Notes: a model not told the origin generated them from the letters alone. A DNA stretch of 54,161 nucleotides from Thermoplasmataceae archaeon (GCA_046705365.1 JBJKQM010000016.1:1-54161), one strand, 5' to 3'. Numbered from the stretch's first letter, positions 18,826 through 53,494 are shown. Numbers and translations: made by a program.

Positions 18826-19866
18826 TTGCAAGTACTCCCCATGATTCTCGGTCTGCTGAATGGGCTTGATACAATTTATAAGGCACTTATTGGAATCCTT
18901 TGGGATTCAACAATTTCTTTCGGGTTGAATCCGCATTATGCATTTCTTGTGCCATTTACTAACTATGGTAAATTCAAGATTCTTGGTTCCCTCATAACAG
19001 GAGAAGTCTTCTTTCAGTTCGCTTCTCTGGTTGTTCTTGTATCAAGCGTGATAACCCTTGCATTCAACAGCTTCAATGAACCTAAACCATACGGCAAGTA
19101 CATGGTTAGAATAACAACCGCTGTTATTCTTGGAGCAATTTCTTTTTTCCTGATGACATGGGTCCTCGCTGCTTTGGGTTCCGTTTATTCCACAATTTAC
19201 AATACCTCCGGAATTCAATGGTCTAACTTCCTTCTATTTTCCTCAAATGCGTTTGGGGGATCGAGCCAACCAGTAGTTGAAAACAATTACACTGCAATCA
19301 TTGAAATATTTGTTTTGACAGGATATTTTACGGCTGCTTTGTCCCTTTTTGCCGAACTGATGTTACGTCAGGCTCTAATGTTGCTTGCTCTTTTGCTGCT
19401 CCCATTTGGAACAGTTCTATACTCTCTGGAGCACGCAAGGAAGTTTACCGTGATCCTCTGGGAGATACTGATCGAGATGTCAGCTTATCCTTACATAGTG
19501 CTCGGGTGCCTGTATCTCGGGCATATATTCGCCTGGGATATGCCACTCCAGCTTGCTTTCCTGTTTCTGCCTTCCCTGATTCCAGGAATTATGTTCGCTA
19601 CCGGGAATAGTTTTCTGTCGGCACCGGTAATGGGCTTCATTGGAGGCCTTTCACTTTCCCGAACAGTTGGGAAAGGAGTTGAGGCGGGAAGCATTGCAGC
19701 AGGAGCAGTTGAAGGTGCTGGAGCTGCATCAACTTTCCAGCGCGGAGTCAGCTTCCCGGTTACAGAGAGGAATCCGCTTGCTAAGAACATGGTATACCAG
19801 AAAAAATCAAATGACCTGCCATGGAAGGAACTGCTTGATGAAGAACTGAAATACAGGAAAGAGTGA
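18826..19866 (+). CDS. Polytopic membrane protein (VirB6/TrbL/CedA-like candidate)
   Basis: 346-aa ORF starting at TTG 18826 or ATG 18841. It has about 6-7 TM helices and a hydrophilic Gly/Ala-rich C-terminal tail. Its stop overlaps the next gene's start (GTGA). Confidence 0.5.
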   Translation: MQVLPMILGLLNGLDTIYKALIGILWDSTISFGLNPHYAFLVPFTNYGKFKILGSLITGEVFFQFASLVVLVSSVITLAFNSFNEPKPYGKYMVRITTAVILGAISFFLMTWVLAALGSVYSTIYNTSGIQWSNFLLFSSNAFGGSSQPVVENNYTAIIEIFVLTGYFTAALSLFAELMLRQALMLLALLLLPFGTVLYSLEHARKFTVILWEILIEMSAYPYIVLGCLYLGHIFAWDMPLQLAFLFLPSLIPGIMFATGNSFLSAPVMGFIGGLSLSRTVGKGVEAGSIAAGAVEGAGAASTFQRGVSFPVTERNPLAKNMVYQKKSNDLPWKELLDEELKYRKE

Positions 19867-20525
19867 TTAAATTGCAGTACCCAAAACTGCCAAGAAATAG
19901 CTATTCCTATAAAGCATCCATATTTGGGATACCCATCCGGGATGCCTTAATATTTAGCATCATAGCCTCTATTTCAATTCTTTCAGTTAGAATTAACATT
20001 TACACCCCCATATTGGGAACTGCATCGATCGTGATTATTCTCCTTTTCAGAAGGAGACTTTTTTCAGGATTGAAAATCACCAAGAAAATTAGACTGAAAG
20101 GAAGAAAAATCAACATTTTCTTCCCGGTCAAAGTTCAGAGTCACAATGAACACCTGTTCACGCTGTTCGGAAAGAGCATTTCCATTTTTTTAGAAGTCGA
20201 AGGGATAAATATCATGGCAATTAGGGTCAATGACCAAAAAACGATTTTAGAGGGGTTGCGACACGCATTAGAGGTTTCTGAAATGAACATAGACTTTTTT
20301 TCCTGTTATCAGAGACACAGTGGGTCCAGAAATGGCATCTATTCTTTCAAGACATATGTCAGAATTTTTTCCGGAATCACCGTCTCAGATCTTGAATTGT
20401 CCATGGGTGAACTTGAAAAGAGGGTATCAAATTTTGAATCTAGTCTTGGAATTAACGGATTTCACGCAAGAGAGCTGAGGAAAAAGGAAGAAATAGAGGA
20501 TCTATTGAAAATCCTTATTCCATAG
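19863..20525 (+). CDS. 2-TM protein with soluble domain (VirB3-like plus VirB4 N-terminal-like candidate)
   Basis: 220-aa ORF with a GTG start. SIFGIPIRDALIFSIIASISIL and ILGTASIVIILLF form two TM helices. They are followed by a soluble alpha/beta region (HLFTLFGKSISIFLEVEGINIMAI...). Confidence 0.45.
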   Translation: MIKLQYPKLPRNSYSYKASIFGIPIRDALIFSIIASISILSVRINIYTPILGTASIVIILLFRRRLFSGLKITKKIRLKGRKINIFFPVKVQSHNEHLFTLFGKSISIFLEVEGINIMAIRVNDQKTILEGLRHALEVSEMNIDFFSCYQRHSGSRNGIYSFKTYVRIFSGITVSDLELSMGELEKRVSNFESSLGINGFHARELRKKEEIEDLLKILIP

Positions 20526-20537
20526 GGGCGTTATCTA

Positions 20538-21938
20538 ATGTTTAAGAAAAGAAAAGGAAGAGTTAGGGGCGATTCTAAAACCAGTTATATTGGCCACAGA
20601 AACTTCACAGAGTCCAACGTATTTTTTTCAGACATCGCTGTTTCCGAGATGGATTATGAGCTTGGGCCGTATTATCTCACTTCACTGGAAAGCTCCGGAA
20701 TACCTTTTGATCTTCGCGTCAGCCTAAGAGATGTGAATGATGCAAACAAATCAAGATTCCTGAAAAGAATGCTTTCAGAAAGGAAAACGGAGGTGAGAGT
20801 TACAGGCATAAGCATATCCGGAAACGAGACTTTGAAAAGGCAAATCTCTGACCTGGAAAATATTCTTTACCAGTACGAAAAAGAAGACGTAAAACCTGTT
20901 AACATTTCTTTAATTTTCCGAATATTTGCAGAGCACCCCGCCATATTGAATGAAAGAGTGGAAAGGGTGGCAAATGACCTTAGAATGTTTGGAATCCAGA
21001 TTGAAAAAATTAGGAGCTCCAAACGTTCCGTAGCTGATTTCTTTTCTACTGCAGTTAATAACAGGTACAACTACCTGATGAATACAAGGCACGCTGCTAC
21101 AATTGTTCCTATTTTCAGAGAACCCTCGGATAACGTGAATGGGGCAATAATAGGCGTAGATGACTTAACAGAAAGGTTTGTGAGGTATGACCCTTTTTCA
21201 CAAAACTCCCACAATATCCTTGTAATAGGAGAAACTGGCTCGGGAAAATCTTACTTCGGTAAACTGTTGCTTACAAGAAATATCAAGATAGGCACCGCTG
21301 AAAGGGCGATAATCTTTGATCCTTTGAATGAATACTTCTGCAGTTTCTTTGGTTCAGACTGCCATGAAACCGATATTCAAGGTTTTCTTGAAGAAGCAAA
21401 TTTGAAAAATTGGATTGATCATGACCCAGAAAGAACCCCAAATTGGGCCGGAGTTGTAATAATCAAACCCCGACCTGGGGACCTTGATGAGCCTGACCTG
21501 ATTTACCGGCTTCTTGAGCATATGAATTCAATGATGATGGACCAGTCGGGTCAGAGGACTCTCATCCTTATAGACGAATGCCACGTTATACTAAGAAATT
21601 CAAAAAACGGGAAAATTCTCAGCCAAATGGTTAGGCATTCTAGACACTTTAATACGGGAATTTTGAACATTTCTCAGAATACAGATGACTTCCTTAATGA
21701 AAGGACAAATTCCATTGCATTTAACAGTAACAGAATTTTCATTTTCAGAACCAGAAATTTCAAGGAACCCCACAGGAAAATATTAAAATTGGATGATTTT
21801 GACATTGAAACGCCGGAAAGGCTAATGGGGGGGAAAATGCATCCCTACTCTGAATGTATAGTCACAGACGGAGAATTCTGCAGAAAATTAAGAATTATCT
21901 CATCTCTATCAGAGGATGAGGTGCTTCAGCGTTTCTGA
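20538..21938 (+). CDS. VirB4/TrbE/CedB-like FtsK-HerA-superfamily ATPase
   Basis: 466-aa ORF with these motifs:
- Walker A: ILVIGETGSGKSYFGK (nt 21228-21251)
- AIIFDPLNEYF immediately after it
- Walker B: TLILIDECHVIL (nt 21561-21584)
- Sensor-like: GILNISQNTDDF. Confidence 0.7.
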   Translation: MFKKRKGRVRGDSKTSYIGHRNFTESNVFFSDIAVSEMDYELGPYYLTSLESSGIPFDLRVSLRDVNDANKSRFLKRMLSERKTEVRVTGISISGNETLKRQISDLENILYQYEKEDVKPVNISLIFRIFAEHPAILNERVERVANDLRMFGIQIEKIRSSKRSVADFFSTAVNNRYNYLMNTRHAATIVPIFREPSDNVNGAIIGVDDLTERFVRYDPFSQNSHNILVIGETGSGKSYFGKLLLTRNIKIGTAERAIIFDPLNEYFCSFFGSDCHETDIQGFLEEANLKNWIDHDPERTPNWAGVVIIKPRPGDLDEPDLIYRLLEHMNSMMMDQSGQRTLILIDECHVILRNSKNGKILSQMVRHSRHFNTGILNISQNTDDFLNERTNSIAFNSNRIFIFRTRNFKEPHRKILKLDDFDIETPERLMGGKMHPYSECIVTDGEFCRKLRIISSLSEDEVLQRF

Positions 21939-28078: not shown

Positions 28079-30394
28079 ATGTCAGAAAAAAAAGCGGCTG
28101 GACGTTTTTCAGAAATTATAGATCTTATTAATTCCGACGACAGGACACTTAACGACATCTCCTCTGCTATGTCACTTGGACTGAGCCAGGAAGAATTGTC
28201 AATGCTCAGGAATTATTTCAGGGAACTCGGGCGAAACCCCACAGATGTTGAACTTCAGGCTATGGCACAGGCATGGAGTGAACATTGCTGCTACAAATCC
28301 TCAAAGTTCTACCTTAAAAAGTATTTCTCCGGCCTCAGCAAGGGCAATGCGATGCTTGCAATGGAAGACGATGCAGGCGTTGTCTCCTTTGATGATGATT
28401 ACGCATACGTGGTGAAAATGGAAAGCCACAACCATCCTAGTGCCCTTGAACCTTATGGGGGTGCAGCAACTGGCGTAGGTGGGATCCTGAGGGACATACT
28501 ATGCATGGGGGCACAGCCGGTTGCAGTTTTGGATTCAATATACTTTGGTGATGTCTCTATCAGGAAATGGGAAGAAAAGAGCCTCCACCCGAGATTCATA
28601 CTTAACAATGTTGTGGGAGGAATAAGGGACTATGGCAATAAAGTGGGAATACCCAACGTAGCAGGTTCAGTTGATTTTGATGAATGTTTTAATCATTCCC
28701 CGCTTGTAAACGCAGGTTGTGTTGGAGTTGTCAGAAAGGACAAGATTGTTAGAAGCCTGATTTCAAAGCTTGGTGACCTCTTACTGCTTGTGGGAGGGAG
28801 AACTGGCAGAGACGGAATTCATGGAGTGACATTTGCCTCAGCGGTGCTCAAGGAGGAAAGCAGTGAAAACAAATCAGTTGTTCAGCTGGGAAATCCCATC
28901 ATCAAGGAACCCCTCATTCATGCTGTCCTGGAGGCAAATGACAGGAATCTAATCGATGGAATGAAGGATCTCGGCGGAGGTGGCCTCTCAAGCTCTGTTG
29001 GAGAATTATGCCTTGCAGGAGGTGTATCTTCCGTGGTTAAGCTGGACAAAGTGCTTCTCAAGGAGGAGAACATGAAGCCATGGGAAATCTGGATAAGTGA
29101 AAGCCAGGAGAGGATGCTTCTGGCCATTTCCCCGGACAACCTCGATGCTATTTCTGAAATCTTCAATAACTGGGATATAGAGTTCTCAGTCATAGGGGAA
29201 GTGGTAGAAGGGAACCATCTTATTCTTAAATATGAAGATGAACAGGTGCTGAACCTTGACCTTAATTTCCTCACTTCAGGACCGGTTTACTGCAGGTCAT
29301 ATGAACTTCCAAAGAAGAAAATGCTTGATTATGTCATACCTCCTGAAGATTTTGAACTTAAAGCATTCCTCAAGGAATTCCTTTCAGATCCTTCCAACTG
29401 CTCCAGAATGAACATTACGAGACAGTATGACCACACAGTGAGAGGGGACACTGTGATACGGCCAATGACCGGTTACCCTAACGCAGAAACACATTCAGAC
29501 GCAGCCGTTGTAAAGCCCCTGGAACATTCATCTAAAGGGCTGGCCATCACTGCGGGCTCCAGATATGACATGGTGGCAGTTGATCCAATGGCGGGAACCT
29601 TTGGCACTATGACAGAGGCCTATCTCAACATACTCGTCACAGGAGCTAAACCTTCCTCAGTAGTGGATTGCCTTAACCTTGGTAATCCGGAGGATCCGAA
29701 AATAATGGGTCAACTTGTTCAGATAGTGGAATCGATGTCTGAGTTCTGCCGCAGGCTTGAATTGCCGGTAGTTGCTGGAAATGTAAGCCTTTACAACCAG
29801 TTTTCCGGAAAAAATATAAAACCGGTTCCCAACATAATGATGGTTGGTGCAATGGACGATGTTTCCGGAGCAATAAGCGCCGATTTCAAGTATCCGGGTA
29901 ATCTCATTTACATAATAGGGATGGAATCCTCCAACCTCGGTGGGAGCCAGTTCCTTAAATACAGGAAAATCAAAAGCAACACGGTTCCATGGTTCGACAT
30001 GGATGAGCTCGCAATCATCTCGGAGAAATACCTTGCAGCATCTGGGAAGAACCTGCTGGTTTCCGGCCACGATGTTTCTTCAGGAGGTCTTGTTCAGACC
30101 CTTTTGGAAATGTCATTTGGCTTCAACATTGGCTTTGATGTAGATCTTTCTGACGTTTCAAACGCCAGAACTATGGAGAAAATCTTCGCAGAAGGCGGAG
30201 AACGGATTGTGGTGGAGGTAGCTCCCGAGAAAAAGGAGGAATTTCTCAGCACTTTTGAAGGCGTATCTGTTACTGAAATTGGAAAAACAACCCAGGATGT
30301 AATTCTTATCAGGGACAGGAATATGGACGTGCTAAAGGGAAATGTTGAAGAATTTAAGATTCCATGGGCGCATGGCCTTGACAGATATATATGA
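28079..30394 (+). CDS. purL: Phosphoribosylformylglycinamidine synthase subunit PurL (FGAM synthase II)
   Basis: 771-aa ORF with WSEHCCYKSSK, ESHNHPSALEPYGGAATGVGGILRD and duplicated AIR-synthase-like domains. Confidence 0.9.
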   Translation: MSEKKAAGRFSEIIDLINSDDRTLNDISSAMSLGLSQEELSMLRNYFRELGRNPTDVELQAMAQAWSEHCCYKSSKFYLKKYFSGLSKGNAMLAMEDDAGVVSFDDDYAYVVKMESHNHPSALEPYGGAATGVGGILRDILCMGAQPVAVLDSIYFGDVSIRKWEEKSLHPRFILNNVVGGIRDYGNKVGIPNVAGSVDFDECFNHSPLVNAGCVGVVRKDKIVRSLISKLGDLLLLVGGRTGRDGIHGVTFASAVLKEESSENKSVVQLGNPIIKEPLIHAVLEANDRNLIDGMKDLGGGGLSSSVGELCLAGGVSSVVKLDKVLLKEENMKPWEIWISESQERMLLAISPDNLDAISEIFNNWDIEFSVIGEVVEGNHLILKYEDEQVLNLDLNFLTSGPVYCRSYELPKKKMLDYVIPPEDFELKAFLKEFLSDPSNCSRMNITRQYDHTVRGDTVIRPMTGYPNAETHSDAAVVKPLEHSSKGLAITAGSRYDMVAVDPMAGTFGTMTEAYLNILVTGAKPSSVVDCLNLGNPEDPKIMGQLVQIVESMSEFCRRLELPVVAGNVSLYNQFSGKNIKPVPNIMMVGAMDDVSGAISADFKYPGNLIYIIGMESSNLGGSQFLKYRKIKSNTVPWFDMDELAIISEKYLAASGKNLLVSGHDVSSGGLVQTLLEMSFGFNIGFDVDLSDVSNARTMEKIFAEGGERIVVEVAPEKKEEFLSTFEGVSVTEIGKTTQDVILIRDRNMDVLKGNVEEFKIPWAHGLDRYI

Positions 30395-30420
30395 TGGAAT
30401 AATACGAGGATGTAAAAATA

Positions 30421-30690
30421 ATGGCAGATGACTACTATTCAAAAAGAATTTACATTGAAGAGAAGAATGTAACAGTTGATACCAGCTACAGGCTAAATTT
30501 TGATGCCGAGAGAACTTGCGGATTCACAAGAGTGTTCGTTGGAAAGGTTGAAAATCCTACACCTGATGACGAACTTTACGAGATTTACATGGAACTGCAC
30601 GAATGTGGCCTTACACATGAACAGGTCGAAAAGAAAGCTGAAAAAGTGATTGATGAGATAAAAACAGGGAAACTGGACGTTTCTTTTTAA
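30421..30690 (+). CDS. Hypothetical small acidic protein
   Basis: 89-aa ORF with no motif I recognise. Confidence 0.35.
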   Translation: MADDYYSKRIYIEEKNVTVDTSYRLNFDAERTCGFTRVFVGKVENPTPDDELYEIYMELHECGLTHEQVEKKAEKVIDEIKTGKLDVSF

Positions 30691-32441: not shown

Positions 32442-32694
32442 GAAATGTAATTGAGATCACTCATATAATCTTGTCAATAACAACACTTCAAAGGAATGAA
32501 TTTATTGATTGCATGTTATAAATACATACATAGTCTTACCATAATTATTATGTTTGAAACCCTACTAATTATTAAGTAACATAAAATCCCCTATTTTAAA
32601 GGATTACAAAAGCTATACAGTTTGATACAACAGACATACATTTCGCATCAAATGTACGTACAAATAATAACATTTAAATACTTACAACAGTATT

Positions 32695-33138
32695 TTGGTT
32701 AGAAGTCTCTTGAGTGTTGATAACAAAGATACCAAACTAACTCTGCGAATATCTGAAGAAGATCTTTCAGAGATAGATGAATTTCTTAACACCAACCCAA
32801 GATTCGGCAGTCGCTCTGAATTCATTAGACACTCAGTTCTGGATTATATTTCCAGAACTCGTATTGGCATACTTGATTCCAGTGACACTGGGATCAAGCT
32901 CAGTAAGAACATGGACAAAATGATCTCTATGGTCGTTCAGAAAGGCTTTTTCAAGACTAAGGACGAAGTCATTGAGGAGCTGCTGGAGAACGCTGTTAAA
33001 ACAGGAGAGCTCCATAACATTATAGAGGAAAAGATGCAAAGCTTCACCTCCATAATGAATGATCTTGAAAAATTCGATGAACTCACTGACAGATTCAGTG
33101 AGAATACAAGTAAGAATGGGAAATTGAAAAAAGTTTAA
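32695..33138 (+). CDS. Ribbon-helix-helix (CopG/CdrS-CdrL-like) DNA-binding protein
   Basis: 147-aa ORF with a TTG start (uncertain). KLTLRISEEDLSEIDEFL...GSRSEFIRHSVLDYI is an RHH pattern, and the C-terminal half is helical. Confidence 0.6.
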   Translation: MVRSLLSVDNKDTKLTLRISEEDLSEIDEFLNTNPRFGSRSEFIRHSVLDYISRTRIGILDSSDTGIKLSKNMDKMISMVVQKGFFKTKDEVIEELLENAVKTGELHNIIEEKMQSFTSIMNDLEKFDELTDRFSENTSKNGKLKKV

Positions 33139-33151
33139 GGTAGGTGCAAAA

Positions 33152-33928
33152 GTGGAAACGATTGGAACAAATTATATGGAAAGTGTCGTGAAAGGGCTGA
33201 TCAGAAAGTACTACCAGGAGAGGATGGACAATGTTGTCCTCGCTTTTGGCAAGGCCGGAGACAGAGTGGTTAGAAATATCAAACCACTTCAGATAAGGAG
33301 AACCGCATACCGATCAATTCAGGCCAAGGAGGAAAGGGCATTCACAATGGCTTCCCCTTCACCTGAGACAACTGAGATAGAGATATCTGAACCAGACCCT
33401 ATGAAAGTGACACTTCTTTCCAGGGAAGAGTATGAGTACAGGAAAACCCTGAACCAGTTTGACCAATGGGATGAATCACTGGAGACCGCATCTATATCCA
33501 CAACTTACTTCGGTGCAGATGGAGACTTTGAATCATTGTCTAAAGAACTCCTTAATGACATAGACAAATCCAATTCCTATGTCCTGGTTAGCGGTTTTGG
33601 GGGAACCTTTGCACAAAAAATGCATGTAAACTTTTCCAAGCTTCTCACAAAGAGGAAAATAGCACATGTGAACGTTATCATAAAACCATCAAAGGAAGAC
33701 CTGAAGAGGAGAAAACTTGCGGAAAGTGGAATAAAGGAAATTGAGGCCACAGGTGCAAGCGTAATAGTCTACGACAACCAGAAGCTGGTTGATAAACAGA
33801 AAGCTTACATTAGAGACAAATCAAAAGTCATAAGAAAAATAAATGTGGATATTGCCAGGCATGTGGAAGTCCTTTCAACAAGGCTTTCCAATGCATCTGA
33901 ACTTATAAAATATCAACTTTCTGCATAA
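33152..33928 (+). CDS. Truncated, degenerate FtsZ/tubulin-like protein (N-terminal GTPase-fold only)
   Basis: 258-aa ORF with a GTG start preceded by AAGGTAGGTG. VLVSGFGGTFAQK...VNVIIKPSKEDLKRRKLAESGIKEIEATGASVIVYDNQKL parallels the remembered FtsZ segment [12 protein letters not shown]...[41 protein letters not shown], with the same spacing. Confidence 0.5.
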   Translation: METIGTNYMESVVKGLIRKYYQERMDNVVLAFGKAGDRVVRNIKPLQIRRTAYRSIQAKEERAFTMASPSPETTEIEISEPDPMKVTLLSREEYEYRKTLNQFDQWDESLETASISTTYFGADGDFESLSKELLNDIDKSNSYVLVSGFGGTFAQKMHVNFSKLLTKRKIAHVNVIIKPSKEDLKRRKLAESGIKEIEATGASVIVYDNQKLVDKQKAYIRDKSKVIRKINVDIARHVEVLSTRLSNASELIKYQLSA

Positions 33929-41760: not shown

Positions 41761-42579
41761 ATGCTAGAGTCGTCCAGGGCTTATCTTTTGAAATTTGATC
41801 GTGTTATTGTTCCCATGGCTAAGGGAGATCGCTCCCGTGTGGTTCTGGATATGGCTTTCAAGCTCTCGGAAACCTATAAAACTGAAATCACTGCCCTGAC
41901 CATAAAAGAGGAACTGAAAGAAGTCACGTGGAGTGACAAGGTAAATGTCATCATCAATGCATACCGAGATGGCAAGGAAAGGAACATTAAGGTAATCCCA
42001 AAGGTGAGAACTTCTCGCAGTGTCAGGCAGGGTATTACGGAAGAAGTTTCCACAAGAAATTACGATTTGCTTCTGTTGGGGACATTTAAGCGGTCCATAC
42101 TTTCAGGCTCTCTGTTCGGAGGCATAGGAGATTATGTCATGAAGAACTCGAACATCCCCACTGCTGTCTTCAGCATAAAAGGAAGTGAGTTCCCGTACAG
42201 AAAAATACTGGTTCCAGTTTGTGAAACTCTTAACACCAGGGCATCTTTTGCACTGGCCATGCATTTCAAACAGGCTCTGGGTTCAAATCTGGTCCTTGCG
42301 GATTTGAGGAAATACGACAAGAAGAAAACCCACGGATTCAGCACTGTTTTTGACAGGATGGGTGAAATGATCTCGTCCTATGGTGACAATATTTCTGTCA
42401 TAAGGCCCAGTTTATCCACATCCCTGCTTGAGGAAATGGAACTGGTGATCAGGGACCAGCGACCAGACCTGATTGTTTTCGGGGTCAAAGACAGCAAAAG
42501 CGGAAAAGTAAGATTTAACTCTAATATGAAGAACCTTGTGAAATCAACTGTTCAGGACATAGTAGTCCTGAAAAAATAA
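41761..42579 (+). CDS. Tandem universal stress protein (UspA) domain protein
   Basis: 272-aa ORF with two Usp-like halves (RVIVPMAKGDRS...LLLLGTFKRS...G and KILVPVCETLN...DLIVFGVKDS). Confidence 0.65.
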   Translation: MLESSRAYLLKFDRVIVPMAKGDRSRVVLDMAFKLSETYKTEITALTIKEELKEVTWSDKVNVIINAYRDGKERNIKVIPKVRTSRSVRQGITEEVSTRNYDLLLLGTFKRSILSGSLFGGIGDYVMKNSNIPTAVFSIKGSEFPYRKILVPVCETLNTRASFALAMHFKQALGSNLVLADLRKYDKKKTHGFSTVFDRMGEMISSYGDNISVIRPSLSTSLLEEMELVIRDQRPDLIVFGVKDSKSGKVRFNSNMKNLVKSTVQDIVVLKK

Positions 42580-42582
42580 CTC

Positions 42583-43197
42583 TTACGACAGAACATTGGG
42601 CGGCAATATTTTCATTGCTGTCAGGTAGTTGATAATCCAGACATTGAGAGACACTGTATTAACATAATAGGTTCCGAATATGGGAAAATTTCTCTGTTCA
42701 TTCTGGTAAATCAGTGAATTGAGCTGTGTTTCAATATTTGTCATGGAGATATTCATATTTACGTTCTGGCCCAGCCCATGTATTGATGTTGCAATTCTTG
42801 CCACCTGATCTGTTGCGCCAAGAACAGGTATATTTGGATCCTCTCCTGATGCTGAATATGCGACCATGGCATAGGGAATCTGAGAAATATTCACGGTCGG
42901 ATTCTCGGATTTGAACTGCTGTATGTACTGCAAAGTCTGGTTAAGAGTATTGTTGGTATTTAGAGGATATTCATTGCTGGCAGCTGGCCTGGCCTGGAAG
43001 AAGTAGGATGCGTTGAATGCGTCTGCCAGCAGATAAGAACCGTAAATGGTCCCGTTTATTTCCACCGGAGAACCGGACGACTGGTAAGGCAATGCCACCT
43101 GCGTAATCTCTGCGGTAACTGTCGGATAAACGAATCCCAGTACAAACAGAATAGTAAATGCAAACGCGAAACCCTTCAGAATGCGCTTATAGTTCAC
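42583..43197 (-). CDS. kdpC: K+-transporting ATPase subunit KdpC
   Basis: 204-aa ORF with an N-terminal TM helix and SASGEDPNI (cf. SGSGLDP). It overlaps kdpB by 4 nt. Confidence 0.8.
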   Translation of the reverse strand: MNYKRILKGFAFAFTILFVLGFVYPTVTAEITQVALPYQSSGSPVEINGTIYGSYLLADAFNASYFFQARPAASNEYPLNTNNTLNQTLQYIQQFKSENPTVNISQIPYAMVAYSASGEDPNIPVLGATDQVARIATSIHGLGQNVNMNISMTNIETQLNSLIYQNEQRNFPIFGTYYVNTVSLNVWIINYLTAMKILPPNVLS

Positions 43198-45185
43198 CAG
43201 GTCACCCCCACTGCAATCATCACAGAATAGATCACTTTTATCAGAATAAATGGAAGGATAATTCCTCCTAAACCATATATGGAGACATTTCGCTTGAGGA
43301 GGTCCCCAATAGAGGTGGGCCTGTACCTTACGCCCCTTATTGCCATGGGTATGAGGAGCAGGATAATCAGGGTATTGAAAATAAGTGCAGCAGTAATTGC
43401 AACAATAGGGTTCTGGAGATTGAGGATATTGAGGAAATCGAGTTCCGGAAGAATTGTGAACATGGCTGGCACAATTACGAAGTATTTGGAGAGATCATTG
43501 GCAACACTGAAAGCGGAAAGTGCACCTCTGGTTATGAGAACCTGCTTTCCCAGGAAAATTATATCCATGAGTTTTGTTGGATCATTATCAAGATCTACCA
43601 TGTTTGCAGCATCCTTTGCCGCCTGCGTGCCATTATTCATTGCAAGGCCAACGTCCGCTCTGGACAAAGCTGGAGCATCATTTGTACCATCTCCCACCAT
43701 GGCAACCATCCTCTGCTGGTCTTTTTCCTTCAATACTACATTGTATTTGTCCATGGGAGTACTGTTTGCCACATACTCGTCAATGCCACTCTCGTTAGCT
43801 ATGAATGCAGCTGTCGTTTCATCATCCCCGGTGCACATTATGGTCTTTATGCTCATTTTCTTGAGACGTTCGAGCCTCTGCTTGATTCCTGGCTTGAGTA
43901 GGTCATTTAGCTCTATGACCCCGGCAAACTCTTCGTTTCTTACTACAACCAGAGCGGTTCCTCCCCTAAGTGAGACTTCTTTGCACAAACCCTCTATGTA
44001 AATATCGGAGAGGTTGTACTTCTTCTCAATGGCTTTCAGTGCACCCTTGAAGATTTCCTCCTCCCTGGATTTGACTCCACTGGATTTTGTTTCAGCTGAG
44101 AACGGCACGAATTTGTAATCCTTGAGGTCTTCCTTCTTAACTTCTATACCCTCCCGTTCAGCAAGTTTGACAATAGACATGCCTTCTTTTGTCAGATCAT
44201 CAAGGGAACTCATGGAGCAGTACCTGACAAAATCAGCGTAATCTACTCCTTTGTTGGGGTAGAACTTTACTGCTTCCCTCTCACCCATGGTGACTGTGCC
44301 AGTTTTGTCCAGTATTATAGTATCGATATCACCTGCGTTTTCAATCGCCTTTCCGCTTTTTGCGATGACATTGTATTGTGAGATCTTGTTGATAGAAGCG
44401 ACTCCAATTGCAGGAAGCAGTCCTCCGATAGTTGTTGGGATCAATGCAATAAGCAGGACAATCAAAACCATCAGGTTAGGCGTGAGTCCGGAGAAATATA
44501 TGGTGCTGAATAGCGCTGATACAACAATAAGGAAAATTAACGTGACACCGGAAAGGAACACAGTCAGGGAAATTTCATTTGGAGTCCTTGAACGCCTGGA
44601 GTTTTCCACAATGGAGATCATCTTGTCCAGGAAGGTTTCGCCAGGGTTATTGGTTACAACAACCTTGAGTCTATCCGTGACCAGTTTTGTGGAACCTGTC
44701 ACGCTGTCCCCGAAAATCTTCCTGGATGGCCTTGATTCTCCTGTGACGTTGGATTCGTTCACGAAACCGGTGCCTTCAATGATCTCACCGTCGATTGGTA
44801 TTATGTCTCCTGCTTCAATAAGGAGAATATCGCCCTTCTTGAGATCTGAGGAGTTTACCTCCTTGATCTCATCTCCGACTATGAGTTTGGCAATCACTTC
44901 TTTCTTGAGCTGCTTCAGGGAATCTGTAATTGCCTTGCTTTTGCTCTCTGAAATGGCAAGGCTGGTATTTGAAAAGAACAGGGTAAGGAAAAGATTGGTT
45001 ACGACTGCTATATAGAAGTAAGTATATGGCGTGCCGGTTGGTGCATTAAACCACGTGGGGAAAATAGCGATAAAAATTGAGATTATGAATGCAAATTCGG
45101 TCACAAACATAACCGGATTTGAGAAAAGATACTTCGGGCTGAAGTTTTTGAGAGCCTGTATTGCCACCTTAAAACCCTGATTCAA
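43194..45185 (-). CDS. kdpB: K+-transporting P-type ATPase subunit KdpB
   Basis: 663-aa ORF with DKTGTVT, MCTGDD and VGDGTNDAPAL. Confidence 0.9.
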   Translation of the reverse strand: MNQGFKVAIQALKNFSPKYLFSNPVMFVTEFAFIISIFIAIFPTWFNAPTGTPYTYFYIAVVTNLFLTLFFSNTSLAISESKSKAITDSLKQLKKEVIAKLIVGDEIKEVNSSDLKKGDILLIEAGDIIPIDGEIIEGTGFVNESNVTGESRPSRKIFGDSVTGSTKLVTDRLKVVVTNNPGETFLDKMISIVENSRRSRTPNEISLTVFLSGVTLIFLIVVSALFSTIYFSGLTPNLMVLIVLLIALIPTTIGGLLPAIGVASINKISQYNVIAKSGKAIENAGDIDTIILDKTGTVTMGEREAVKFYPNKGVDYADFVRYCSMSSLDDLTKEGMSIVKLAEREGIEVKKEDLKDYKFVPFSAETKSSGVKSREEEIFKGALKAIEKKYNLSDIYIEGLCKEVSLRGGTALVVVRNEEFAGVIELNDLLKPGIKQRLERLKKMSIKTIMCTGDDETTAAFIANESGIDEYVANSTPMDKYNVVLKEKDQQRMVAMVGDGTNDAPALSRADVGLAMNNGTQAAKDAANMVDLDNDPTKLMDIIFLGKQVLITRGALSAFSVANDLSKYFVIVPAMFTILPELDFLNILNLQNPIVAITAALIFNTLIILLLIPMAIRGVRYRPTSIGDLLKRNVSIYGLGGIILPFILIKVIYSVMIAVGVTW

Positions 45186-46966
45186 TGTAACACCCCCATT
45201 ATCGCAAGATTAAATGCGCGGGCCCAGGAAAGGAATGGCCCAAGTGCCAGTATCGGGAAGAAGGAAAGCACACCAAGCAGTATCATTACAGTAAGAAGCA
45301 TGAGCCCGTAGAGAAAAGTACCAGGATTTATGCTCCTCCCGAATTCAACTTTTGGGCTCTTGGAAGAAAATGAATCAGCAATGGCAAGCTGGAAGCCCAT
45401 TAAGAGGAACCTTCCCAGGATCATTATTATGCCGTCCAGATAGTTGAAATAGCTCTGGTTGGTAAGGAATCCCCCAATTTCAGATCCATTATTTGCGGCT
45501 GCTGTGCCAAATTCATAAAGGACCTGTGTAACCTGATCCGGTCTTGTAGATGGAAATCCTGCAAGCAGGGAGGGGAGCATCATTGTGACACCAAATGGAA
45601 TGAGTACAAGAAGCGGGTGGGTGACAAGGGATAAAGTTGAGTACTTAATTTCCTTTGAACTGATTTTAAGGCTCATGAGCTCCGGTAGCTTGCCTACCAT
45701 TAGTGAGGTTATGAAAGTGGTGAAAATTACGAACATGAAGAGATTCATCAATCCGGTTCCAACGCCACCTATGGGATCGTTGAGAAGAAGGTTTCCAAGT
45801 ATTCCAAGCGTGCCTGCAGGTGTAAATGCAAGCAGGGATGAATTAGCGGCACCAGTTGAGGTGAAAACCGCACCAGTGGCAAATATGGAACTCTGCGACA
45901 ATCCTATTGCAGTTTCCTTGCCCAGCATGTTTCCAGTATATAGGGTGCCGAGGTTGGAGAGTGCCGGTATCCCTGTGTATTCACCGAAAAATGTTAAAAA
46001 TGTTGTAAAAAGGAATACGATCATGACAACTGCGTACAGCATGTTTGAAAATCCCCTGCTGTTGAAAACCCTGCCAAGGGAAAATATGGAACCCAGCGGG
46101 ATCAAGGTGAAACCCACAAACTCCGAAAGATTGGTGAACCAATTAGGATTTTCAAAGGGGAACCCGGCGTTTGCGCCATAAAATCCGCCTCCATTTGTCC
46201 CAATATTCTTGATGCCTTCAAGGGTTGCAACAGGGCCCAGCGGGATGTTTACAATCCCTGATCCGCCAAGAACCTGCACATGCATTGCACTCGCCAAGGT
46301 CTGTGGAACTCCAAAAAGGAGAAGAATGACAGTGAGGCCAATTGAGAGTGGAAGTATCAGATAGAATATGGACACCAGGAAATCGTGGTAAAAATTACCA
46401 AGAAAACCTTTGTCATTAAGTATTCCCCTTATGAATGCCATGGATGCAGCAAAGCCAGTCCCTGCACCTACGAACATGAGGCCTGTAATAACAAAAGTCT
46501 GGCTGAAATAGGTGAGGCTAAGGGGATTTGAATAATGCTGCAGATTTGTGTTTGTCAGGAAGCTGGTTACAGTATTGAACGTCAATGATGCATCAAAATG
46601 CGAATATCCGCCCCCAAAAGGAAGGAAATTCTGGAAATAAAGGATAAAAAAAGTTATGATGCCCGCGAAGGCGTTAAACATCAGGAGGTTAAAAAAATAC
46701 TCCCTGAATTTCATGGTCTTTTCCTGGTTTTCCCCGAAGATCTTTTCAAAAAATGCAACAACTCTTCCGGACACTGGGTCAAGAAAAGTTGGTTCTCCAA
46801 GATACAGCTTTTTTATGTATCCGGAGATGAAAAATGCCATCACTGACATTATTAGAATGTAAATCAGAATGATGAATGAACCTGAAACTATCCGGTTGTT
46901 AAGGAAGAAGTTACCCCAGAACGACGGCGTTCCGGTGGACAAAAACAATGAACCAGTATAACTCAA
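45182..46966 (-). CDS. kdpA: K+-transporting ATPase subunit KdpA
   Basis: 594-aa polytopic ORF with a TTG start. It has selectivity-filter-like TNGGGF and NNGS motifs. Confidence 0.85.
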   Translation of the reverse strand: MSYTGSLFLSTGTPSFWGNFFLNNRIVSGSFIILIYILIMSVMAFFISGYIKKLYLGEPTFLDPVSGRVVAFFEKIFGENQEKTMKFREYFFNLLMFNAFAGIITFFILYFQNFLPFGGGYSHFDASLTFNTVTSFLTNTNLQHYSNPLSLTYFSQTFVITGLMFVGAGTGFAASMAFIRGILNDKGFLGNFYHDFLVSIFYLILPLSIGLTVILLLFGVPQTLASAMHVQVLGGSGIVNIPLGPVATLEGIKNIGTNGGGFYGANAGFPFENPNWFTNLSEFVGFTLIPLGSIFSLGRVFNSRGFSNMLYAVVMIVFLFTTFLTFFGEYTGIPALSNLGTLYTGNMLGKETAIGLSQSSIFATGAVFTSTGAANSSLLAFTPAGTLGILGNLLLNDPIGGVGTGLMNLFMFVIFTTFITSLMVGKLPELMSLKISSKEIKYSTLSLVTHPLLVLIPFGVTMMLPSLLAGFPSTRPDQVTQVLYEFGTAAANNGSEIGGFLTNQSYFNYLDGIIMILGRFLLMGFQLAIADSFSSKSPKVEFGRSINPGTFLYGLMLLTVMILLGVLSFFPILALGPFLSWARAFNLAIMGVLH

Positions 46967-50079: not shown

Positions 50080-50141
50080 GTCATTATTAAATAATCTATA
50101 AAACCAAAATATATTATTTTTCATTTCAATTGCAATCAATA

Positions 50142-50609
50142 ATGATTCAATTAATCCCTATTTCTAATGAAGATTTTGAAAAAGATCTAAAGGTCTGGAT
50201 AAACGAGTATGCTGAAGAAAAAGTAAAGGCAGGCACCTGGCCGGAAGAGGGTTCTCTGGAGCGATCCGAAAAAGAATTCAGCAGGCTCCTGCCAAAGGGC
50301 AAAGATACCCCTGATCAGCACATATTGAGCATAGTGGATGAGGCTGGAACCAAGCTGGGAAGCCTGTGGTTTGGGGTTTACAGAGACACAGAACCATTTG
50401 GTGCATTCATCTGGGATATCAGGTTAACAGAAAACGTCAGAGGAAAAGGGTACGGAAAGGAGACTATGACGGCACTTGATAACTTGCTCAAGGAACTTGG
50501 CATTGGCAAAGTTACCCTTCATGTTTTTGCACACAATGAGGTTGCGATCAATCTTTACAAAAAAATGGGCTATAAGACTACCGATATTATGATGGCAAAA
50601 GAATATTAG
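50142..50609 (+). CDS. GNAT-family N-acetyltransferase
   Basis: It contains VRGKGYGKETMTALDNLLKELG...NEVAINLYKKMGY. I prefer ATG 50142 over TTG 50130. Confidence 0.75.
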   Translation: MIQLIPISNEDFEKDLKVWINEYAEEKVKAGTWPEEGSLERSEKEFSRLLPKGKDTPDQHILSIVDEAGTKLGSLWFGVYRDTEPFGAFIWDIRLTENVRGKGYGKETMTALDNLLKELGIGKVTLHVFAHNEVAINLYKKMGYKTTDIMMAKEY

Positions 50610-50620
50610 AAAAATGGTTT

Positions 50621-51100
50621 TCAGAGGATTTTTCCGTATACGTCCACTATCTCTCTGAAGCCCAGATCCTTGTAGAAATTTAGGGCAATTGGGTTAAGCG
50701 CAGGAAATTCCGCGGTAACCAATTTAATTCCCCTTTCTTTGAGTTCTTCGTATACCCGATCAATAAGAAGCTTTCCAGCACCTGTTCTCCTGACTTCCGG
50801 CATTACATAGAACTCAACGATCCTTGCCTCGGTTTCCGGGACATAATAGGATCTTTTGAGCAGGTTGACTGAAATTATTCCAACAAGTTTTCCGCCCCTG
50901 TCAGCTACGAGGGCTATTCGTGACTCCTTGTCTTCGACCATTGACTTCAGATGTCGCTCAGCATCACTCTTTGCGTCGTCAGCAACATTGAAAATTGAGT
51001 CGAATTCCCCGTTGAGCTTCTTGAGCCTCAACAGAAGATCAGTAACTTTGGCGATATCCTGTTCCTTAAGCGGCCTTATTTCAACTTCATTTTTTGACAT
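50621..51100 (-). CDS. GNAT-family N-acetyltransferase
   Basis: It contains VRRTGAGKLLIDRVYEELKERG...NPIALNFYKDLGF. I prefer ATG 51100 over GTG 51109. Confidence 0.75.
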   Translation of the reverse strand: MSKNEVEIRPLKEQDIAKVTDLLLRLKKLNGEFDSIFNVADDAKSDAERHLKSMVEDKESRIALVADRGGKLVGIISVNLLKRSYYVPETEARIVEFYVMPEVRRTGAGKLLIDRVYEELKERGIKLVTAEFPALNPIALNFYKDLGFREIVDVYGKIL

Positions 51101-52430
51101 CTGCACCACCTGGTAATTCTCTGATCAGTTTCTCATCCATGAGACGAATATACATTTTCCTGTTGGTTTCTATCATTTCTTCGGCGATCTTGAAGAATCC
51201 CTCTTTTGAATTTGCCTTTCTAGCAAGGCCCATCTCAACCGTCTTCGATGCAACCGCTGATGCCACTTTCGGGTACAGTTCCCATTCTTCCATTGTTGGG
51301 ACTATCCTGTCTTCTGACGGATCCTTGACAAAGTTGGCTATTTCATAAGAGGCCGTCACCATTATGTCAAAATTAACTCCCTTGGCCCTGGCATCCAGAA
51401 CTCCCCTGAACACTCCGGGAAAAACAAGGCTGTTGTTGACCTGATTCGGGAAATCTCCTCTTCCGGTTGCAACAATGCTTGCGCCTGCCTCTTTTGCAGC
51501 TTCCGGCCAGATCTCGGGAACTGGATTAGCCAGGGCAAAGAGGATGGCATTGTCATTCATTGATTTGATCCATTCCTTCTTTATTGTGTCAGGTCCTGGT
51601 TTTGCAGCTGATATCACTACATCAGCACCTTTGAAGGCCAACTCCGCAGGACCTTTCAGCCTCTCCCCATTTGTGCGCATTGCAAGTTTATACTTCCATG
51701 GATTGTTGAGCATTAGGCTATCCATGTCCTCCCTTTCAGGTTCCAGAATGCCCTTTGAATCAGCCATTATTATATTCTTCTCCCTGAATCCTGCAGCGAA
51801 GAGAAGATGGGCAGCTGCAATATTGGCAGCTCCGGAGCCAAGCAGAACTATTTTTGCATCCTCGATCTTCTTCCCAGCGACCCTCAATGAGTTGATGAGC
51901 CCGGCAAGTGTTATACAGGCTGTCCCAAGCTGGTCATCATGCCAGGCAGGGATGGATAAGCTCTTTTGCAGTTCTTCCAATACGAAGAAACATTTGGGAG
52001 ATTCAATATCTTCGAGGTTGAAACCTCCGAAGGATGGTTCGAGAGCCTTGGCCACAGTGATGAACTCATCCTTAGTCTTTGTGCGTATAGGTATTGGGAC
52101 AGCATTTACTGCTCCCAGGAAATTGAAAATCAGTGATTTGCCCTCCATGACAGGCATAGCCGCTTCTGCGCCAATGTTTCCAAGTCCCAGAACCCTGGAT
52201 CCGTCTGTCAGTATAGCTATACTGTTCCATCTTCCTGTGAGTTCGAACGAGAGCTCGGGGTCTTCTGCAATTTTTCTTGATACAGCCGCAACCCCAGGAG
52301 TATACCAAACAGAAAAATCCTCAAGCCTCCTGACAGGGACTTTCGACATTACCTGGATTTTGCCTTTGTAATATTCTGAATACTCTATTGCTTTCTTGTT
52401 AAAGCCTTCAGTTCTGGAAAAGTCGTCCAT
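51087..52430 (-). CDS. NAD(P)-dependent malic enzyme (short archaeal/bacterial type)
   Basis: 447-aa ORF with YTPGVA, VLGLGNIGAEAAMPVMEGKSLIF, FNLEDI and LLGSGAANIA. Confidence 0.85.
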   Translation of the reverse strand: MDDFSRTEGFNKKAIEYSEYYKGKIQVMSKVPVRRLEDFSVWYTPGVAAVSRKIAEDPELSFELTGRWNSIAILTDGSRVLGLGNIGAEAAMPVMEGKSLIFNFLGAVNAVPIPIRTKTKDEFITVAKALEPSFGGFNLEDIESPKCFFVLEELQKSLSIPAWHDDQLGTACITLAGLINSLRVAGKKIEDAKIVLLGSGAANIAAAHLLFAAGFREKNIIMADSKGILEPEREDMDSLMLNNPWKYKLAMRTNGERLKGPAELAFKGADVVISAAKPGPDTIKKEWIKSMNDNAILFALANPVPEIWPEAAKEAGASIVATGRGDFPNQVNNSLVFPGVFRGVLDARAKGVNFDIMVTASYEIANFVKDPSEDRIVPTMEEWELYPKVASAVASKTVEMGLARKANSKEGFFKIAEEMIETNRKMYIRLMDEKLIRELPGGADVKK

Positions 52431-52564
52431 TAAATCAATATATGGATTTTTTCTGGGTTAATTAACGTTATCTATGAAAAACGACGCTCAATTCGGGATT
52501 TGCCGATTTTCTGGAAAATTTCTAAATTCAAAAGAGTTTATGCTTTGATTAGAATCTGGAATCC

Positions 52565-53494
52565 ATGGATATGAACAATGTAAAGCTTGACTGGGGGCCG
52601 ATTCTGGAAGGCCAGATCAAGCATCTGGAATCTCTGTATCCTGATATCCCCATTAGAAAATCTTTCCATCCATTAATAGAATCTCTGAACGCAAACCGTA
52701 TAAAATCTCGAGTAATATTAAGCGGAATTAATGTTTCAGCATACGCATTTATCACTCCAAGCAATGAACATACTGACAGATTATATGCCACAGTCGGCTT
52801 TACTGATCCACAATTTGTGAGTGCGGAAAGAACCGGCAACCTCATGAAATGGCTTGAGGATACTGCGAGAATACAGAACAGATACCTCATGCTTAATGAA
52901 ATACATAATGCCGAAGAAAAAACCGATGAGTATCTTTTTCCAAGGAAATACAGTAAATTTGTGCGAAAGAGGCTTATTCTTGACCTCAATGAAATTCCAC
53001 AAATTGATACACCGATAGAAGGGAAATTTGAGAGCATCCCCATAGGGAAAGTAAATTTTGAAAAATACTCTGACAGTGAATTTTCCGCCTTTTCCGAAAC
53101 AGCAGACCAGATTCTTTTCAACTCAACAAATCGCAGGGAAAGGATAGAGTTTTCCAAAGGTCTTTTCGCCGGTAAATTAGGCAAGGTTATTGAACCAGCT
53201 TCAAAGATACTGTCTGCTAATGGCAATATAGTTGCAGCATCCCTTGCTACTGACTACAGAAGCCTGGATGGCACAAAAACGGCACTCATTGCCAATATAT
53301 TCGTAGACAAGAAATTCCAGGGAAAAGGTATTGCAAAACACCTTCTTGTGGATACCCTGAAATCCCTCAAAAATCAGGGCTACGAAGAATGTGCATTATG
53401 GGTTTCAACCGGAAATCCAGCAAGAAATCTCTATGATAAATTTGGTTTCAAGGACACAGGAACCGTAGAGACCTTCTATTACCTTAAACCATGA
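52565..53494 (+). CDS. Protein with C-terminal GNAT acetyltransferase domain
   Basis: 309-aa ORF. The C-terminus has FQGKGIAKHLLVDTLKSLKNQGYEECALWVSTGNPARNLYDKFGF. I do not recognise the N-terminal 170 or so residues. Confidence 0.65.
   Translation: MDMNNVKLDWGPILEGQIKHLESLYPDIPIRKSFHPLIESLNANRIKSRVILSGINVSAYAFITPSNEHTDRLYATVGFTDPQFVSAERTGNLMKWLEDTARIQNRYLMLNEIHNAEEKTDEYLFPRKYSKFVRKRLILDLNEIPQIDTPIEGKFESIPIGKVNFEKYSDSEFSAFSETADQILFNSTNRRERIEFSKGLFAGKLGKVIEPASKILSANGNIVAASLATDYRSLDGTKTALIANIFVDKKFQGKGIAKHLLVDTLKSLKNQGYEECALWVSTGNPARNLYDKFGFKDTGTVETFYYLKP

Follow-up and report, generated by a model that had tools for sequence, protein, structure and literature searches.

A short FtsZ homologue limited to the N-terminal domain is encoded in a conserved operon with a ribbon-helix-helix protein in Thermoplasmatales

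Positions 32442-33928 of a 54,161-nt stretch of DNA from a Thermoplasmataceae archaeon (GCA_046705365.1 JBJKQM010000016.1:1-54161; "the window" below means this whole stretch) carry a gene for a ribbon-helix-helix (RHH) protein followed by a gene for a 258-amino-acid (aa) protein. This second protein is a homologue, within the FtsZ superfamily, of the N-terminal domain of FtsZ, with a similarity far above chance, and the two genes are a vertically inherited two-gene operon across Thermoplasmatales. What is new is an FtsZ paralogue reduced to its N-terminal domain (here called half-FtsZ), with rewritten nucleotide loops and a dedicated RHH partner of two units. As to function, the best single hypothesis, which we advance tentatively from sequence comparison, is that the half-FtsZ may be an autoregulated, non-polymerising modulator of FtsZ1/FtsZ2 assembly, acting as a chain terminator or by sequestering subunits.

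In single-sequence comparisons the profile matches of the window protein to FtsZ are sub-threshold yet specific. It matched Pfam Tubulin (PF00091) at E 7.4e-6 with 26.8 bits, under the gathering score of 33, and TIGR00065 (ftsZ) at E 4e-7 with 29.7 bits against a cut-off of 295.2, the latter match spanning only positions 97-199 of a 353-position model. Among 21 family members, PF00091 was found at E <= 0.01 in 13 (best 1.4e-10) and FtsZ_C in none, and Tubulin_2 (PF13809) matched neither the window protein at E <= 10 nor any of the 21 members at E <= 0.01. Comparison of a profile of these 21 members with a profile of 10 true FtsZs gave a far stronger result (hhalign, 98.7%, E 3.5e-16, 192 columns), in which family residues 29-253 pair with FtsZ from S1/T1 through the end of H7, the alignment halting directly before the T7 loop. 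PDB sequence searches with the window protein returned almost exclusively FtsZ, and with the family profile FtsZ accounted for 47 of 50 matches, the best being Thermotoga maritima FtsZ (1w5f, E 3.2e-7); CetZ and TubZ were absent from these 50, and tubulin and BtubA appeared only at E > 1. The AlphaFold model of the protein (predicted local distance difference test score [pLDDT] 73, predicted template-modelling score [pTM] 0.68) has its elements in the same order as FtsZ and ends in a 35-residue helix. With this model as the Foldseek query, the top 50 PDB matches were all FtsZ (probability 1.00, TMq about 0.5), and phage tubulins fitted it less well. Judged by these comparisons, the protein is closer to FtsZ than to the CetZ, TubZ or tubulin branches.

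A first-pass annotation of this DNA had proposed an FtsZ/tubulin-like protein from an alignment with a remembered Escherichia coli FtsZ sequence, and the profile and structure searches bear that proposal out. Against the E. coli segment as quoted there, both proteins do have 32 residues from the first G of the glycine motif to KP, with 8 identities. The 13 identities counted after KP were reproduced, but they are spread over 34 residues with one gap rather than over 32.

Of FtsZ, the half-FtsZ gene (33152-33928, plus strand, as are all the features of this gene given below) covers only the N-terminal (GTPase) domain, S1 through H7. It starts with GTG, and direct reading of the sequence finds a Shine-Dalgarno-like GGTAGGTG at 33139-33146, 5 nt before the GTG and inside the 13-nt gap that separates this open reading frame (ORF) from the upstream RHH ORF on the same strand. 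Both ORFs, the gap and the stretch from GFGG to KL at nt 33593-33787 are where the first-pass annotation had placed them. The protein ends with a long helix (residues 223-257; 33818-33922) that is the equivalent of FtsZ H7 in both the AlphaFold2 (AF2) model and the hhalign alignment, and its tail, RLSNxSELLKYQL, is conserved. The T7 loop (NxDxxD), the C-terminal domain and the C-terminal tail of FtsZ are all absent. On the opposite strand, pyrI begins 2 nt past the stop codon and leaves no space for a C-terminal domain, in another frame or otherwise. The early reading that the protein ends soon after the H7 equivalent is upheld by hhalign and by the position of pyrI.

The nucleotide loops that remain are much altered, in the way first described. 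By hhalign columns, the T1-loop equivalent AFGKAGDR (residues 31-38; 33242-33265) replaces GxGGGGxN and stands opposite GVGGAGGN in the aligned FtsZ (P0046). The NTDxQ and GxGxG motifs of the FtsZ T2 and T3 loops have no counterpart. In the T2/H2/T3 position lies an acidic, largely disordered insert (residues 58-112; 33323-33487), recognised from pLDDT, from its composition (14 Asp and Glu against 6 Lys and Arg) and from its failure to align with FtsZ in hhalign; pLDDT falls below 50 at residues 61-88 and 101-111, and an EPDPxKVxLLSREEYEYRK motif in the insert is kept in close relatives only. The T4-loop equivalent, SGFGGTFAQK (residues 147-156; 33590-33619), placed by the PDB sequence match and by hhalign, replaces GGGTG(T/S)G and is followed by a near-invariant H158. 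Here the aligned FtsZ (P0046) reads GLGGGTAS and the window protein GFGGTFAQ. Across the family the T4 consensus is SGFGGxFAQxMH, a motif set of its own in which the tubulin signature GGGTG(T/S)G is not matched. The best-preserved part is T5-H5-S6-T6, where FtsZ has KPFQFEGAKR...A...I...L...IPNQKL and the window protein KPSKEDLKRRKLAESGI...YDNQKL; the best-conserved stretch that the family has in common with FtsZ, from T5 through H5 to T6, reads KPSxxExxRRxxAxxGI...YDN. Family-wide, G33 and P179 are invariant, and conservation reaches at least 90% at G36, L145, F149, G150, Q155, H158, A190 and N231. Canonical GTP binding seems doubtful, T2/T3 being gone and T4 rewritten, although several positions of the nucleotide site persist (G33 and G36 in T1, G150, P179 and E182 in T5, N209 in T6). 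Judged from these motifs, loss of GTP binding is plausible. A role as cap, regulator or scaffold, suggested at first reading, is likewise plausible.

Such a pattern raises the question of whether the FtsZ fold has been repurposed, either as a ligand-binding or enzymatic protein or as a sensing co-regulator of RHH DNA binding, with no direct action on filaments. We regard this as rather unlikely. In its favor, the GTP motifs have given way to a strongly conserved GFGGxFAQxxH with near-invariant Q155 and H158, plus P179, the operon sits among housekeeping genes with no division genes in the window, and its tight coupling to a DNA-binding gene would suit a sensor-regulator pair. Yet the strongest likeness to FtsZ is kept in T5-H5-T6 and not in a novel pocket, and the order of an RHH gene followed by an FtsZ gene has a precedent in cell division. 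Nor did the window protein match any enzyme family, or any toxin family, in Pfam and NCBIfam scans.

The short protein belongs to a family that spans the order. In a first search for homologues, 28 proteins of 254-276 aa came up at 61-100% identity, together with one 144-aa fragment. When 1.84 billion representatives were scanned exhaustively with HMMER, 18 matches were obtained at E < 1e-10, 16 of them 244-272 aa long and two shorter fragments, and past these 18 the list grades into ordinary FtsZs. One further profile search (A5) returned 31 proteins and missed most known family members, and so is no measure of absence from Picrophilus, Ferroplasma or Acidiplasma. Members include proteins of Thermoplasma volcanium (BAB59798.1/Q97B03, 244 aa), Thermoplasma acidophilum (248 aa), Thermoplasma sp. 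Kam2015, Thermogymnomonas acidicola, Oxyplasma meridianum, "Thermoplasmatales archaeon AK" and many metagenome-assembled genomes of Thermoplasmata, annotated at source as "hypothetical protein" or, automatically, as "cell division GTPase." The length stays within 244-276 aa over about 18 clusters at 50% identity, and the ratio of nonsynonymous to synonymous substitution rates (dN/dS) against orthologues is 0.036-0.16 where synonymous sites are unsaturated. Because length is conserved, dN/dS is low and the family has near-invariant residues of its own (F149, G150, Q155, H158 and P179), the protein is best regarded as functional and length-constrained. A decaying pseudogene or chance ORF might be suspected from the look of a truncated FtsZ with broken motifs, but the dN/dS values and the length conservation refute it, and conservation extends to the start codon, the Shine-Dalgarno-like site and the partner gene; we give that explanation practically no weight. 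The early description of a locus "gone rogue" likewise gives way to one of an order-wide, length-conserved family under strong purifying selection in fixed synteny.

The pairing with the RHH gene is equally constant. In 14 of 14 distinct neighborhoods with called genes, which cover the whole divergence of the family, a gene of 136-158 aa lies directly 5' of the half-FtsZ gene on the same strand and is divergent from the gene for aIF2-beta, so that the pairing proposed for the window is present in every relative surveyed in this way. In a genome scan, tblastn confirmed both genes at 12 loci. Working from the other side, the most divergent RHH homologue (37% identity) also has a family member downstream (hhalign probability 100%). 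The two genes overlap by 4 nt in T. volcanium, by 14 nt at locus L022 and by 4 nt at locus L023, and abut with a 0-nt gap in O. meridianum; such abutting or overlapping genes suggest that the RHH protein and the half-FtsZ may be cotranslated in a fixed proportion. The neighbors of the operon are housekeeping genes (aIF2-beta, pyrBI, purL and HMG-CoA reductase). In Thermoplasma proper (T. volcanium, BA000011.4 642357-658773, and L022), aIF2-beta is kept upstream of the pair, the intergenic region between it and the RHH gene is only 51 nt, and an AsnC-family regulator and an AsnA-like gene replace pyrI-pyrB downstream.

RHH genes commonly precede archaeal ftsZ2, and the RHH protein CdrS regulates division (Darnell et al. 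2020, PMC7439475; Liao et al. 2021, PMC8406309). The half-FtsZ gene does sit in an operon behind an RHH gene, as was noted from the outset, and this order is the known one for archaeal ftsZ2. The first-pass annotation went on to suggest a diverged cdrS-ftsZ2 locus, that is, the lineage's own cdrS-ftsZ2 by orthologous descent with FtsZ2 truncated to a pseudo-GTPase. The shared gene order, in which a gene of the FtsZ family directly follows a small RHH gene on the same strand, would agree with this, as would a weak match of the RHH protein to the CdrS model (E 1.1e-3). The division proteins of T. volcanium argue otherwise. Pende et al. list BAB59948.1 and BAB59169.1 as its FtsZs and BAB59368.1 as its SepF, and the short protein BAB59798.1 is absent from their table. 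With two other FtsZs and a SepF in the same organism, the short protein is most probably an additional paralogue and not a replacement for FtsZ2, so the idea of a degraded FtsZ2 of the lineage is not sustained. Further, the RHH protein is 142 aa long and scores 18.9 bits against a CdrS cut-off of 100, with ParD and ParR models scoring higher, and the nearest full-length matches of the half-FtsZ are a mixture of FtsZs and show no particular leaning toward archaeal FtsZ2. Orthologous descent is therefore improbable in our view, and the pair may instead go back to an older duplication of a cdrS-ftsZ2-like module. Within the order, Thermoplasma and Cuniculiplasma have a complete FtsZ machinery plus a minimal set of endosomal sorting (ESCRT) complexes, and Picrophilus, Acidiplasma and Ferroplasma are without FtsZ, SepF and PRC-barrel proteins (Makarova et al. 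2024).

The RHH partner gene lies at 32710-33138 on the plus strand. The mechanically called ORF starts at a TTG at 32695 (147 aa), and the start codon is most likely the TTG at 32710 (142 aa), as suggested by an alignment in which this column is TTG or GTG in 13 of 13 orthologues. We found 69 homologues of 131-179 aa, mostly 142 aa, among which the N-terminal segment KDTKLTLRISEEDLxEIDEFLxxNPRFGSRSEFIRH is close to invariant, and the dN/dS of the gene is 0.064. In ORF numbering, residues 12-58 form RHH unit 1 and residues 65-103 a second RHH-like unit, before a long C-terminal helix (105-140), and the AF2 monomer has helices at 21-33 and 40-58, at 71-82 and 89-103, and at 105-140; the tandem-RHH reading is based on profile matches and helix periodicity only. 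Pfam RHH_8 matched residues 12-52 below cut-off (E 0.004), as did three NCBIfam models: ParR (PRK13916) at residues 9-54 (E 2.2e-5, 24.4 bits, cut-off 140), CdrS (NF058555) at residues 15-55 (E 1.1e-3, 18.9 bits, cut-off 100) and the ParD antitoxin (TIGR02606) at residues 65-116 (E 2.3e-6, 27.5 bits, cut-off 46.2). The best PDB sequence match of the N-terminal unit was 2q2k (E 0.007), which we take to be the complex of pSK41 ParR with centromere DNA.

None of the RHH families compared accommodates this protein. CdrL combines an RHH domain with a C-terminal double zinc ribbon and is known from Halobacteria only. The protein described here comes from Thermoplasmatales, contains no cysteines and so can have no CdrL-type zinc ribbon, and Pfam and NCBIfam scans gave no zinc-ribbon match. 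Identity with CdrS falls on the score and on the architecture, two RHH-like units and a 35-residue helix making a protein more than twice the length of the 61-position model, and the identification of the partner with CdrS or CdrL suggested at first reading was accordingly abandoned. Identity with ParR falls on the score and on the fold of the partner, which is that of FtsZ and not of actin. Membership of the pair among ParD-type type II toxin-antitoxin (TA) systems failed on the score, on the lack of a toxin match downstream and on an empty PADLOC result. Of these models, ParD and ParR matched the RHH protein marginally better than CdrS did, with every score below its cut-off.

The AT-rich region upstream of the RHH gene (26.5% GC, against 43.1% for the window) contains a credible candidate for an RHH operator. 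Alignment of orthologues revealed a conserved palindromic element, TACATTTCGCATCAAATGTACGTACA, at 32637-32662, made up of a 7-bp inverted repeat (TACATTT/AAATGTA) and a 10-bp palindrome, TGTACGTACA; its TGT..TAC core is invariant over 13 orthologous upstream regions. The element is unique in the window, and in most lineages its offset from the start codon is -58/-52. It is located just upstream of TTTAAATA (32673-32680, plus strand), which we take from general promoter knowledge to be an archaeal TATA box; this sequence lies 30 nt 5' of the RHH start codon and is kept in 11 of 13 orthologues, the other 2 having TTATATA. Two further TACA cores, TTACA at 32604-32608 and ATACA at 32615-32619 (together 32604-32620), also emerged from the orthologue alignment, spaced 11 bp apart and lying 21 bp from the palindrome, and their offsets of -106 and -95 are kept in close relatives only. 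In all, the intergenic region contains 10 copies of TACA or TGTA where 3.6 would be expected (p ~0.004). In close relatives these motifs stand at fixed positions of -106, -95, -74, -58 and -52 from the start codon, and distant lineages keep -58/-52 only. An alignment of 7 close orthologues brought out another conserved block, ATAAATACATACATAGTCTTAC (32518-32539), in the middle of the divergent intergenic region and about 120 bp 5' of the palindrome; it could serve as a distal or second promoter or as a second operator, or belong to the control region of aIF2-beta. An Rfam scan of the intergenic region found nothing. The operator half-sites originally suspected were a different pair, two copies of TACAACAG. 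Neither upstream copy is conserved in orthologues, and this candidate was dropped in favor of the palindrome; with 4 copies of TACAACAG in the window where 1.2 would be expected, the excess is mild.

An RHH gene in first position, a larger abutting or overlapping partner and a promoter palindrome are also the layout of a type II TA system. By analogy, the half-FtsZ might inhibit division, with the RHH C-terminal region neutralizing it and the RHH protein repressing the operon, so that stress would release the inhibitor as a division checkpoint. The second RHH unit has ParD antitoxin as its best NCBIfam match, and the top, non-significant, structure matches of the RHH protein are RHH antitoxins. 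But antitoxins dominate the databases, which is largely why RHH searches return them, and the pair is single-copy, strictly vertical and in fixed synteny across the order, unlike mobile TA modules. PADLOC gives nothing, and the palindrome is placed upstream of the TATA box and does not cover it. An inhibitor-antidote arrangement of this kind is accordingly unlikely.

In plasmid partition, an adaptor gene is as a rule paired with a filament gene. A partition-like module for DNA segregation, with the RHH protein as a ParR/TubR-style centromere adaptor and the FtsZ-fold protein as its cytomotive or tethering partner, would fit that rule; the 2q2k match and the ParR E-value of 2.2e-5 for the N-terminal unit would fit as well, as would the spacing of the upstream TACA cores at about 11 and 21 bp. 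Without a T7 loop, a C-terminal domain or an intact GTP motif, however, a GTP-driven polymer would not be expected. Moreover, distant lineages keep only the promoter-proximal palindrome, there is no repeat array, and all ParR scores are far under cut-off (24.4 bits against 140), which leaves partition a very unlikely function for the pair.

The modulator hypothesis, that the half-FtsZ tunes the assembly of FtsZ1/FtsZ2, can be stated as a series of steps. The RHH protein would bind the palindrome just upstream of the TATA box and so autoregulate the operon, and it may regulate other genes as well. Having neither a T7 loop nor a C-terminal domain, the half-FtsZ would not activate GTP hydrolysis in a neighboring subunit and would not extend a head-to-tail filament; as it would supply no T7 loop to that neighbor, it should not form the normal GTP-hydrolyzing head-to-tail polymer. 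What it probably does retain, in T5-H5-S6-T6, is the nucleotide-face side of the longitudinal interface of FtsZ. It is this retained surface, together with the precedent of RHH genes followed by FtsZ genes, that leads us to propose docking on FtsZ1/FtsZ2 subunits or filament ends. Once docked, the half-FtsZ would act as a chain terminator or as a sequestering modulator of Z-ring assembly, and its RHH partner would set its dose or availability, possibly by way of its own C-terminal helix acting on the exposed H7 face. Isolated N-terminal domains of FtsZ reportedly fold on their own, and FtsZ mutants blocked at one face of the interface are said to behave as dominant-negative cappers.

Several points weigh against this hypothesis. 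The mechanism as a whole is one that we infer. No part of the protein is more altered than the nucleotide face, which would be needed for docking on FtsZ, and the new invariant Gln and His hint at another ligand or activity. On the side of the partner, the pTM of the AF2 model is 0.35, so that its domain packing is unreliable, and a structure search with this model returned nothing significant (best E 0.9, with RHH antitoxins as the top entries). As regards the locus, tblastn found no canonical FtsZ in the window, and Pfam scans of 50 other ORFs of the window revealed neither SepF nor any ESCRT, actin or Min gene.

A variant of the hypothesis, which we think unlikely, would make the pair a regulator of the Z ring in these wall-less archaea that is anchored to DNA, a half-FtsZ independent of nucleotide being recruited or released by a chromosome-bound RHH protein, so that the state of the nucleoid would be coupled to FtsZ assembly. 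The pair would then be an archaeal counterpart of nucleoid occlusion or of a division checkpoint, built from a domesticated FtsZ fragment.

We found no published description of a short FtsZ-like family of this kind. In the literature searched, neither the T. volcanium accessions nor arCOG14071, which may be this family, could be found. The reviews consulted on the tubulin superfamily and on archaeal cell biology contain no short FtsZ in Thermoplasmatales. The FtsZ superfamily has in this order a third, conserved member that is not counted in surveys of archaeal division genes (T. volcanium table of Pende et al.). Thermoplasmatales have no cell wall, and several carry an FtsZ system together with a minimal ESCRT. 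Should the half-FtsZ prove to cap or sequester FtsZ, prokaryotes would have in it their first FtsZ-derived regulator of FtsZ, an analogue of plant ARC3, and it would give a handle on the control of division in archaea. The proteins occur in T. acidophilum and T. volcanium, which are cultured and structurally tractable, making these proposals directly testable.

Some other features of the window and of syntenic loci were also recorded. A small ORF of 85-89 aa with no Pfam match lies between purL and a riboflavin kinase gene at several loci (L001, 3142-3405; L004, 3277-3546; L021 of O. meridianum, 5678-5935; L023; and L025-L027), the corresponding interval of the window being 30394-30687. At 18826-21938 of the window there are three co-oriented genes, namely, ORFs of 346 and 220 aa without a Pfam match followed by a 466-aa ATPase of the HerA/DUF87/AAA_10 type; a DUF87 ATPase is also found near the locus in O. 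meridianum (L021, 14394-16013). A 123-aa winged-helix protein encoded at 16839-17210 has sub-threshold matches to MarR_2 and to condensin ScpB (23 bits, cut-off 27.4). The region 41761-46966 carries a kdpABC potassium-pump operon on the minus strand (KdpC, 42583-43197; KdpB, 43194-45185; KdpA, 45182-46966) and, divergent from it, a tandem universal-stress-protein gene (41761-42579). Finally, three GNAT acetyltransferase genes are found within 3.4 kb at 50130-53494, around a malic-enzyme gene (50130-50609, plus strand; 50621-51109, minus strand; 52565-53494, plus strand).

Among known systems, the archaeal cdrS-ftsZ2 pair is alike in having a small RHH gene directly upstream and co-oriented, in an operon-like arrangement on a euryarchaeal chromosome. 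In contrast, CdrS is a small protein with a single RHH (the 61-position model), and its 142-aa counterpart here adds a second RHH-like unit and a long helix; FtsZ2, a full-length protein, has GTP motifs, T7 loop, C-terminal domain and tail, and its counterpart here is a degenerate N-terminal domain only, in an order where T. volcanium has two other recognized FtsZs. Compared with the N-terminal domain of canonical FtsZ (Methanocaldococcus jannaschii FtsZ1, 1w5e/1fsz; T. maritima, 1w5f), the half-FtsZ has the same fold and the same order of elements from S1 to H7, with T5-H5-S6-T6 recognizable, but the tubulin signature is absent, T1 is weakened, T2/T3 has become an acidic insert and the chain stops at H7. 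Its scores are also far under the cut-offs for FtsZ (29.7 against 295 bits for TIGR00065, 26.8 against 33 for PF00091).

The ParR-ParM and TubR-TubZ pairs likewise join the gene for a DNA-binding adaptor to a gene for a protein of cytoskeletal fold, and the N-terminal RHH unit weakly resembles pSK41 ParR. ParM, however, is actin-like, TubR is a winged-helix protein and TubZ is full length and GTP-competent, whereas the locus described here is chromosomal, with a single promoter palindrome and an FtsZ-fold protein that has no polymerization elements. The FtsZL1/Tubulin_2 group (Makarova and Koonin 2010) is likewise a prokaryotic branch of the FtsZ/tubulin superfamily that is divergent and non-canonical and has a neighborhood of its own, but the half-FtsZ has no match to Tubulin_2, lies in another neighborhood and aligns specifically with FtsZ proper. 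A functional parallel may lie further afield, in plants. The FtsZ-like domain of ARC3 is not known to carry the GTPase motifs. ARC3, which is made up of FtsZ-like, middle and MORN domains, directly inhibits Z-ring assembly (PMC12232670), and the two would be alike if here too a diverged FtsZ-like domain regulates assembly under the control of a partner. ARC3 is eukaryotic and multidomain and has no RHH partner; the likeness is one of functional analogy only.

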